A stretch of DNA of 63,717 nucleotides, the filler included, from Collodictyon triciliatum (taxonomy: Eukaryota), in NCBI GenBank assembly GCA_043381765.1. It is 4 parts of 4 records of this genome, joined end to end, with 100 filler letters (N's around TTAATTAATTAA, not from the genome) between each part and the next. Parts side by side here need not be neighbours in the genome. Positions count along the whole stretch, not along the records: positions 1 to 17,645 come from JBHJMP010001433.1; 3 more parts are not named here. The stretch is one strand, 5' to 3'. The notes beneath the pieces are model-generated. The model was not told the DNA's origin. It saw only the letters and a program-made list of their open reading frames with translations, and did not search any database. Shown piece after piece: positions 15,601-16,966 of the stretch. The position numbers and the translations under genes are program-made. The first letter of the stretch is position 1, and the number at the start of each line of letters is the position of its first letter.

Positions 15601-16966
15601 GACCAATATCCATTCCGCATTAAATATCTTACTTCACTTGTACTTATTCATCACACACGCCCACCATCACCCCAGAATCCAAACACTTTTCTATCTTAAC
15701 TCACCCCACCCGAAGACTCTATATCATCTTCTTCGGGGCCTCGTATTCTTTCTCGGAAGTCCAGTCTCCAGTGGCAAGAGCCTGTGTCCCGAGCACCTTC
15801 CCTTGCGGATGCACTCGTGAGAAAACATACATATAATTAAGCCATGTCATCTCAGGCAATTCGCTCTGACACGCACCTGTCATAGGCACCCCTGGCAGTA
15901 TCGAACTCCTCTGTATCAACGTCCAATCCGCCTCCAGTCGAGGCAGCCTTTCCCAAGCGACGCTTGTCTCGTTTGGGCCCGATTGGATTGTCTGAGCCTG
16001 TGAGTATACACAGTCCCATATCAATCCATTCTTTTCTGTTTTTTGTTTTGTTTTGTTTTGTTTTGTTTTGTTTTGTTTTGTTTTGTTTTGTTTTGTTTTG
16101 TTTTGTTTTGTTTTGTTTTGTTTTGTTTTGTTTGTTTGTCTATTCCGCAGCTTATCCCTTATCTATCCTTTATCCCTTTTTCCATTTTTTTCCATTTTTT
16201 TCCATTTTTTCCATTTTTTCCTTTTTTTCCTTTTTTTCCTTTTTTTCCTTTTTTTCCTTTTTTTCCTTTTCCTTCTTACGCATCATCCACACACCATGGA
16301 TTGAAGCTAGTTCACATATAGCAGTTTCAATCGCCTCTCTGTCCTGTGATGCCCACTAAATGCAACATTCATGTTTTCTCCAAGGCATTTCCCGTCCCCT
16401 CCATTGTGATGACCGCGCCGCCTCTCGGAAGCATTCCGTCTGGTGCGCTCATGTCGGAAGGCGCGCTTCCATCGGCCACGCGCCGTGCATCTTTTGTGCC
16501 TGTGGTTTCGAGTCCTCTCGTTTCCTCCACATCCACGCACCAAATTGGTATGCTTGATTTGTTTCTTTTATGCTTCTCTCACCTGGTTGTTCTCTACGCA
16601 CTTCTCTGATAATTATATAGCATGAGGCGACGCCCTATAGTTATATATATTCATGCATCCCATTAAAATGGTATATCTTGGTCCTCTTACCTTGTCATTT
16701 GCTGATATTTCGATAGTGCCTTTGCAAAACATTTCAACAACAATTGTAATAAGGATTCGTTCTTATCAGTTTTAAATAAAATATCTTTTTAATACTCATT
16801 TATACGTGCTCATTCGTCTCTTGATTATCACTTTCCCATAGCCAAAGGCAAGATCGATGAGGACGATGAATACGAATCGTCCGACGAAGACGATGAAGAC
16901 GAGACTGAGATGAAGGAACGTACAGACGCGCACGGAGCGGTCACCAAAGGCGCAAACGAGACATAG
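12670..16966 (+). CDS. Predicted N-myristoylated/palmitoylated, Ser/Pro-rich protein with two RPEL-like G-actin-binding motifs; about 14 exons, including an AT-AC intron
   Basis: N-terminus MGVCFGKS. Exon 14274-14339 encodes KLETKLALRSTKKDLLDRNILK and exon 14524-14655 encodes KLEFHLVSRPDIQTLVETNIAQ (RPEL pattern LxxKLxxRPxxxELxxxNIL). Acidic tail DEDDEYESSDEDDEDE, TAG ends at 16966. Confidence 0.7.
13158..13260. repeat. (TTA)n microsatellite, intronic
   Basis: Direct reading. Confidence 0.95.
15606..15709 (+). other. Candidate U12-type AT-AC intron (104 nt)
   Basis: 5' ATATCCATTCC; branch-like TATCTTAAC ending 9 nt before the 3' end CCCCAC. Removing it restores the frame into the downstream exons (…AILT|TEDSISSSSGPR…ADAL|GT). 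Confidence 0.8.
16041..16270. repeat. (TTTTG)n plus T/C-rich compound repeat, intronic
   Basis: Direct reading. Confidence 0.9.

Follow-up and report, generated by a model that had tools for sequence, protein, structure and literature searches.

We examined a 63,717-nt stretch of the Collodictyon triciliatum genome (the window, joined from four pieces) and conclude that positions 15606 to 15709 are almost certainly a genuine U12-type AT-AC intron that is removed by a working minor spliceosome in this diphyllatean (CRuMs) protist, a deeply branching freshwater organism. The conclusion is drawn from removal of the segment in RNA, from its donor, branch, and AC signals, and from four minor snRNA genes and an SNRNP25-like protein encoded in the genome. 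The intron follows an RPEL-like repeat, and because major GT-AG introns occupy the same site in eight sister copies, the class of the intron has probably switched. The original prediction missed that the repeat-homologous site is filled by major introns elsewhere.

The 104-nt segment starts with ATATCCATTCC and ends with CCCCAC, and the genome holds one copy of the intron region. Its donor, ATATCCAT, matches the minor 5' splice site consensus RTATCCT(T/C) exactly from +1 to +6 and deviates at +7; an A at this position occurs in 3 of 16 hand-picked pattern matches, the 15606 intron included. A CTTAAC motif lies at 15695 to 15700, 9 nt before the intron end. The donor pairs with the U11 of this genome except at +7 and pairs poorly with its U6atac (-1.0 kcal/mol), and the branch sequence TATCTTAAC forms a 9-bp duplex with its U12 (-8.0 kcal/mol, one bulged base). 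As an estimate of chance, the same donor, branch, and AC pattern with a non-intron gap of 460 to 500 nt gave 15 rows in 75.4 Mb, or about 0.013 per window-sized stretch.

Excision of the segment joins ACC A to CC GAA in phase 1 and gives the peptide ...AILTTEDSISSS...LADAL, continuing to the GT donor at 15817, whereas read-through meets a stop at 15818. The sequence thus bears out the predicted frame-restoring AT-AC segment of 104 nt, with its ATATCC site, its CCTTAAC-like branch near the 3' end, and its in-phase rejoining up to a GT donor, the reading being open to 15817. The further statement that all alternatives tested run into stops holds for read-through but not for the canonical pair GT15640-AG15764, which removes 125 nt, stays in frame, and is one of 171 donor/acceptor pairs that were open in our enumeration. 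Frame logic was therefore discarded as sole proof of the intron; with a canonical pair also open the frame argument is incomplete, and the RNA decides.

We aligned assembled, cDNA-like contigs from three runs of one study (X1, X2, and X3; the RNA type is an inferred label) to positions 14730 to 16030. The joint from 15605 to 15710, with AT and AC ends and no ambiguity of placement (both=0), was found in two of the three runs: in one contig of X1 (depth 35, shorter side 68 letters) and in one contig of X2 (depth 49.8, shorter side 44 letters). The contigs that bear this joint also skip five other introns, the bins from 15610 to 15697 inside the intron had a depth of zero, and the GT15640-AG15764 junction was not among the joints of the aligned contigs. 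No X3 contig aligned to 14730 to 16030, and that run gives no evidence either way. The X2 contig has a loose end that we take to be cDNA template-switch adapter. Assembled contigs drop rare isoforms, and the RNA may share source material with the genome. The check proposed for the junction, an alignment that allows noncanonical ends, therefore returned the exact AT-AC joint in both X1 and X2; retention, a GT/GC-AG junction at this place, and a genome lacking minor snRNAs or proteins, which had been named as outcomes that speak against the intron, did not occur. As the one minor intron among 15, with a stop at 15818 upon retention, it could limit expression of the host gene; a retained form of 15606 to 15709 was not seen in the contigs, which leaves a regulatory role without support.

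Table 1. Positions of the host gene, its repeats, and the splicing signals in the window
Feature	Position	Strand	Evidence or remark
Host gene (prediction of 16 exons and ~628 aa), protein with an MGVC start, four RPEL-like repeats, and an acidic tail	12670..16966	+	Four models were open for the first intron, of which this is one
66-nt exon with RPEL repeat 1	14274..14339	+	Pfam PF02755, 22.5 bits (cut-off 23); rank 1; predicted exon
GT-AG major-type intron after repeat 1, repeat-homologous site	14340..14523	+	Predicted from frame
132-nt exon with RPEL repeat 2 (14592-14654)	14524..14655	+	Pfam, 13.9 bits; rank 2; 3' end is loose end before 14789 in X1 and X2
GT-AG major-type intron after repeat 2, repeat-homologous site	14656..14790	+	Loose end in contigs
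66-nt exon with RPEL-like repeat 3	14926..14991	+	RNA; rank 3
GT-AG major-type intron after repeat 3, repeat-homologous site	14992..15113	+	122-nt skip in X1 and X2
33-nt micro-exon	15367..15399	+	Joints on either side in X1 and X2
66-nt phase 1-1 exon with degenerate RPEL-like repeat 4 (15542-15604; RP replaced by RT)	15540..15605	+	RNA; rank 4; no Pfam match
U12-type AT-AC intron, 104 nt, phase 1	15606..15709	+	Joint 15605 to 15710 in X1 and X2; depth inside zero
Minor-type 5' splice site ATATCCATT, +7 is A instead of T	15606..15614	+	Sequence; one mismatch in pairing with U11 5' end
In-frame GT-AG pair that overlaps the minor intron and is not used	15640..15764	+	Open frame; absent from RNA joints
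Branch site TATCTTAAC, branch A inferred at 15699	15692..15700	+	9-bp duplex with own U12
AC acceptor, no AG-type 3' end	15708..15709	+	RNA joint
Downstream exon, 107 nt, up to GT donor 15817	15710..15816	+	RNA

We searched the whole assembly (75.4 Mb, 14,576 contigs) with Rfam and Pfam models for components of the minor spliceosome. U6atac (75.7 bits), U12 (72.1 bits), and U11 (55.3 bits) all scored above their Rfam cut-offs, and U4atac scored 47.4 bits (E of 1e-5), below its cut-off of 53; each of the four was a full-length match and each lay on a separate contig. U4atac and U6atac have a 10-nt exact complement in common, and their local duplex (-32.2 kcal/mol) was equalled by 0 of 1,000 shuffles; over the full length of both RNAs, 164 of 300 shuffles were as strong, which makes that control uninformative. 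The stretches of U11 and U12 that pair with the donor and the branch agree with the Rfam consensus. These results uphold the claim of a working minor spliceosome, with three snRNAs passing Rfam and a U4atac that is below threshold yet complementary to U6atac. The companion check for minor-spliceosome proteins gave a mixed result: an exon of the SNRNP25 type (25K) passed Pfam with 33.7 bits (cut-off 22.8), but the 59K match was weak (22.2 bits, cut-off 27) and no 48K zinc finger was found in the genome search.

In the stretch that pairs with the donor, the U6atac gene (contig C2465; locus L001, 1501 to 1616) reads GCCGA, against a consensus of AAGGA. In human U6atac, G14 and G15 pair with C5 and C6 of the donor, according to the available text of PMC4980772, and the GCCGA change is the U6atac "CC variant" described in the accessible part of PMC2396436. 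We also considered ATATCGG donors that coevolved with the altered U6atac and rejected them; the search gave eight rows, seven of them distinct and none convincing, and the U6atac variant had already been published.

Removal of the AT-AC intron by the major spliceosome, with the minor-like signals being incidental, is very improbable. U2-type AT-AC introns do exist (PMC2831892, available text), and the donor of the 15606 intron is imperfect and pairs poorly with U6atac. However, the same source gives U2-type AT-AC introns a G at +5, and this donor has C5-C6, with C rather than G at +5; a U12-complementary branch 9 nt from the intron end and the minor snRNA set in the genome likewise argue against U2-type removal. 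We give even less credence to an artefactual junction, produced by template switching or by a DNA retrocopy, with the real mRNA spliced through GT15640-AG15764 or another canonical pair. A canonical in-frame pair is indeed available and the runs consist of contigs of inferred type, but the joint has no direct repeat and occurs in two runs, the depth within 15610 to 15697 is zero, and the region has a single genomic copy. With minor splicing as the preferred reading, the established mechanism predicts that the donor would base-pair with U11 and the branch site with U12, leaving the branch A at 15699 bulged, that U4atac would deliver U6atac, and that U5 would join the exons. Left unspliced, 15606 to 15709 would shift the frame and lead to the stop at 15818. 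The intron marks the end of an exon-encoded RPEL-like module.

The host gene is predicted to have 15 introns, of which one is minor; its exons from 14791 to 15999 fall within the RNA-aligned stretch, and the others are predicted or touched only by loose ends. A 21-residue profile made from 10 repeats in three other genes of the genome, one of the 10 training rows being one codon out of register, placed the four host-gene repeats at ranks 1 to 4 of the 49,033 21-mers in the window. By Pfam PF02755 (cut-off 23 bits), repeats 1 and 2 scored 22.5 and 13.9 bits and repeats 3 and 4 had no match. The description of the host as an RPEL protein gene is therefore sound insofar as similarity lies above background, but no repeat reaches the Pfam cut-off. 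Fourteen aligned repeat rows have an invariant L and I and a near-invariant R. Repeats 1, 3, and 4 each take up a whole 66-nt exon, which is flanked by phase-1 introns. Among the copies, repeat 4 diverges most (24% identity to the first row of the alignment), and since it has neither a Pfam match nor an RP, its homology is carried by the 21-residue profile. The repeat-2 exon returned no homologue, and four other host-gene exons that we scanned contained no other Pfam domain.

The host gene resembles RPEL proteins (Pfam PF02755; MRTF, myocardin, and PHACTR) in its four repeats of the L-x-R-x-x-x-x-E/D-L-x-x-x-x-I-L type and in the 44-residue distance between repeats 1 and 2; it differs in that no repeat keeps the RP dipeptide or reaches the cut-off. 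The predicted protein starts with MGVCFGK (12670 to 12690), presumably a myristoylation/palmitoylation-like motif, which suggests a membrane-anchored RPEL-like protein. The joint for the repeat-3 intron was listed as TA..GC at 14993 to 15116, shifted by 2 nt; we take it to be the GT-AG intron 14992 to 15113, with both runs differing at 15115 by a synonymous C/T change that comes from an allele, an assembly error, or editing. A low-depth X1 contig at 14797 to 14953 keeps the intron 14827 to 14925 and carries four substitutions and a 3-nt gap; it would be a second allele or strain, present as DNA or pre-mRNA.

Each of the four host-gene repeats is followed by an intron that begins one base after the codon following the I-L pair, with GT-AG introns at 14340, 14656, and 14992 and the AT-AC intron at 15606. 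Eleven repeats on contigs C2452, C3414, and C1729 have five GT-AG introns on the same base; in three more of these repeats the intron is offset by about 1, 3, or 6 nt, and the remaining three lack one at this place. Over the 15 repeats of these contigs and C1433, which carries the host gene, the tally at the exact phase-1 site is thus eight GT-AG introns, located in three genes, and one AT-AC intron. Two of the eight major introns have RNA support and six are predicted, and none has a GTATCC donor. A single repeat on C2375 has no intron at the site. A genome search with a single protein for further RPEL repeats returned only loci already known, and the repeat tally may be incomplete. From these alignments, the intron position was probably inherited with the RPEL-like module, and its class probably changed in at least one copy. 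Animal RPEL genes, myocardin included, may have introns at the same repeat position. Human RPEL exon boundaries were not found in the literature searched, and the supplements of PMC10810330 (no match, and no positive control) and PMC7507305 (a disease table only) added nothing.

Two of the sister introns show further peculiarities. On C2452 (L097, 8579 to 8710), the RPEL-end intron lies one base upstream of the usual site, in phase 0 instead of 1, and is a candidate for a one-base intron slide. The RPEL-end GT-AG intron on C3414 (L098, 3236 to 3477) has the donor GTATATTT and a TTCCTTG stretch shortly before its acceptor, and it might be a relic or an intermediate between the minor and major types.

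The direction of the class change can be read in several ways. The intron at the RPEL end may have been ancestrally major, with the repeat-4 copy either switching (from GT-AG major through GT-AG minor to AT-AC) or being replaced by a minor intron, a reading that we hold tentatively and at a little short of an even chance. It needs one change to account for the pattern, in which eight of nine introns at the exact site are GT-AG and none is GTATCC. PHACTR, MRTF/MKL, MYOCD, and ARHGAP are also absent from the human and mouse lists of genes with minor introns (PMC6717393), where E2F1 and MAPK12 were present as positive controls, and a major origin is inferred for 15 to 20% of human minor introns in the available text of PMC11347168. 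The available text of PMC6865273 lists 55 candidate gains. Against it, conversion is assumed to run almost one way, from minor to major (PMC10639083, available text), the part of PMC2831892 at hand reports one U2-to-U12 case, which went via cryptic sites, and the route would call for some five point mutations while the 5' boundary stayed in place. The converse, that the intron was ancestrally minor, stayed so in repeat 4, and became major in the other copies through one or a few minor-to-major conversions, is possible too, at somewhat less than even. It follows the accepted direction of conversion (PMC10639083 and PMC2831892, available text), and it would fit the divergence of repeat 4 (24% identity to the first row), the possible relic on C3414 with its GTATATTT donor and TTCCTTG near the acceptor, and the apparent scarcity of GT-AG minor introns (9 near rows versus 10 decoy rows), as would follow if such introns are converted in this lineage and those of the AT-AC type survive. 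However, it demands several conversions of the AT-AC subtype, which rarely converts (5 of 79 clusters; PMC2831892, available text), or a repeat 4 that is an outgroup even to its own neighbors; the difference between AT-AC and GT-AG is not significant (Fisher P = 0.10), and 0 of 50 matches in a metagenome collection, mostly prokaryotic, were an RPEL gene with a minor donor.

It is unlikely, by comparison with these two histories, that the shared position is partly coincidence, the minor intron having been gained separately at a site prone to insertion, or repeat 4 being no true copy of the module. Repeat 4 lacks a Pfam match, and the site is not fixed, since in three repeats the intron is displaced by 1, about 3, or about 6 nt and in three more there is none. 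Against coincidence, repeat 4 ranks fourth of 49,033, is encoded in a 66-nt phase 1-1 exon as repeats 1 and 3 are, and has its intron on the same base. By a rough weighing, retention (few ancestral minor sites, with several rare conversions or an odd repeat tree) and gain (one rare multistep event) come out about equal. A completed major-to-minor conversion within one gene, at repeat 4, with the 5' boundary unmoved, eight sisters that stayed major, a lineage that is mostly AT-AC, and a U6atac that barely pairs with the donor, is accordingly something we put forward as conceivable and short of probable. Weak pairing between U6atac and the donor may lower the barrier to new minor donors. Major-to-minor conversion is debated, and the site, with eight major introns and a single minor one among its nine paralogous copies, provides an internal comparison that further CRuMs genomes would turn into a direct test. 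For inferring ancestral states, the CC-variant U6atac and the apparent AT-AC bias are relevant as well.

We estimated the number of minor introns with the pattern ATATCCWT-gap-CTTAAC-(5-12)-AC, using the same pattern with a gap of 460 to 500 as the decoy, since reversed-pattern controls (23, 34, 58, and 511 rows) were poorly matched. Gaps of 60 to 100 gave 35 rows versus 15 decoy rows (P = 0.003), or 31 versus 15 distinct donors (P = 0.013), and gaps of 101 to 200 gave 68 rows versus 37 expected (P = 0.015), for a strict AT-AC excess of about 50 (about 20 plus 31 rows). The frame across the join was open in 20 of the 27 distinct matches inspected with the shorter gaps and in 14 of 26 with the longer ones; about 8 presumably encode parts of conserved proteins. 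A loose pattern, ATATCCTTT, gave 544 rows, mostly chance, and serves as an upper bound only. The matched GT-AG pattern showed no excess (9 rows versus 10 decoy rows), and one clear GT-AG minor intron is present in a ribosomal protein L5-like gene (L104). Likely minor introns at L014, L025, L104, L129, L131, L140, L141, and L148 are in genes that we take to be glutamate dehydrogenase, dynein heavy chains, RPL5 (the GT-AG type), VPS11, a GPN GTPase, RCL1, and ATG9. A second minor intron in the host gene at 13865 was rejected because the motif lies inside a plausible exon (13858 to 13931). Among the other candidates in the window, those at 18323, 25175, 36395, and 43006 were also set aside; at three of them the frame does not stay open across the join, and the one at 18323 has no further support.

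On the assumption that the pattern catches a third to half of real introns, the total would be roughly 100 to 300. This range is like the counts for Protostelium (265), Blastocystis (253), and Rhizophagus (205) in the available text of PMC10639083 and unlike that for Physarum. The strict excess of about 50 and the canonical branch, which is the only branch form that our motif searches cover, point to no Physarum-scale expansion. Minor introns are apparently mostly AT-AC, a bias that is not significant (Fisher P = 0.10).

The intron shares with canonical U12-type AT-AC introns, such as that of human E2F1 (donor ATATCCTT; PMC6717393), the AT-AC ends, the ATATCC donor, the CTTAAC-type branch near the 3' end, and its solitary place in a gene whose other introns are major (1 of 15 predicted in the host gene); it differs in the A at +7 and in a host from an RPEL-repeat family that is absent from the human and mouse lists. 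Blastocystis sp. subtype 1 likewise has hundreds rather than thousands of minor introns and an AT-AC bias (77%, versus about 26% in human), as given in the available text of PMC10639083, but its minor introns are about 40 nt long versus about 87 to 220 nt in Collodictyon, where the bias is suggestive only. Physarum polycephalum has minor machinery and a CC-variant U6atac as well, but the accessible part of bioRxiv 10.1101/2020.10.12.336362 describes 3,648 perfect donors, of which most are GT, and a branch altered to TTTGA, compared with a canonical CTTAAC and a strict excess of about 50 in Collodictyon.

The published CC variant matches the GCCGA for AAGGA in the donor-pairing stretch of Collodictyon U6atac, whose donors are still of the ATATCCTT kind. 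The variant is listed for Trichoplax, cnidarians, a sponge, Acanthamoeba, Physarum, Physcomitrella, and oomycetes in the available text of PMC2396436, to which Diphyllatea would be an addition. The Drosophila URP/CG3294 twintron, the reported U2-to-U12 case (PMC2831892, available text), is similar in that a minor intron stands in the place of a major one in relatives and in that there is an overlapping GT-AG pair (15640 to 15764 here). In the twintron, however, the U12 sites appeared at cryptic positions and the U2 sites have stayed functional, whereas the 15606 minor donor occupies precisely the homologous base and use of the GT-AG pair was not seen in RNA.

The lineage was checked with the 18S rRNA gene (2,153 nt), which contains the sites of the Diphyllatea-specific primers Diphy257F and Diphy1881R with 0 mismatches each and 1,625 nt apart; the expected spacing is about 1,624 nt (PMC6052632, available text). 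Both primer sites being matched places the lineage in CRuMs. A search for HSP90 homologues was uninformative on this point, the matches listed being at most 77% identical. CRuMs are the sister group of animals, fungi, and amoebozoans. PMC10639083 mentions no CRuMs genus in its main text or in the text of its supplement, and the available text of PMC11347168 lists six supergroups without CRuMs. Among the matches listed in our literature search, which lay outside subscription journals, no paper linked CRuMs names with U12 or the minor spliceosome. The intron is thus of a known kind and the CC-variant U6atac is already published; what is added here is spliced RNA from CRuMs, four snRNAs, and the lineage test.

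The window contains runs of N with a short linker at 17646 to 17745, 35385 to 35484, and 53105 to 53204, and only positions 1 to 17645 are C1433; as the four pieces are joined, genes across the joins are not neighbors. A second, shorter SSU rRNA match of 1,440 nt (587.6 bits) was present at L154 (C834, 42374 to 43813) and is probably organellar or bacterial.
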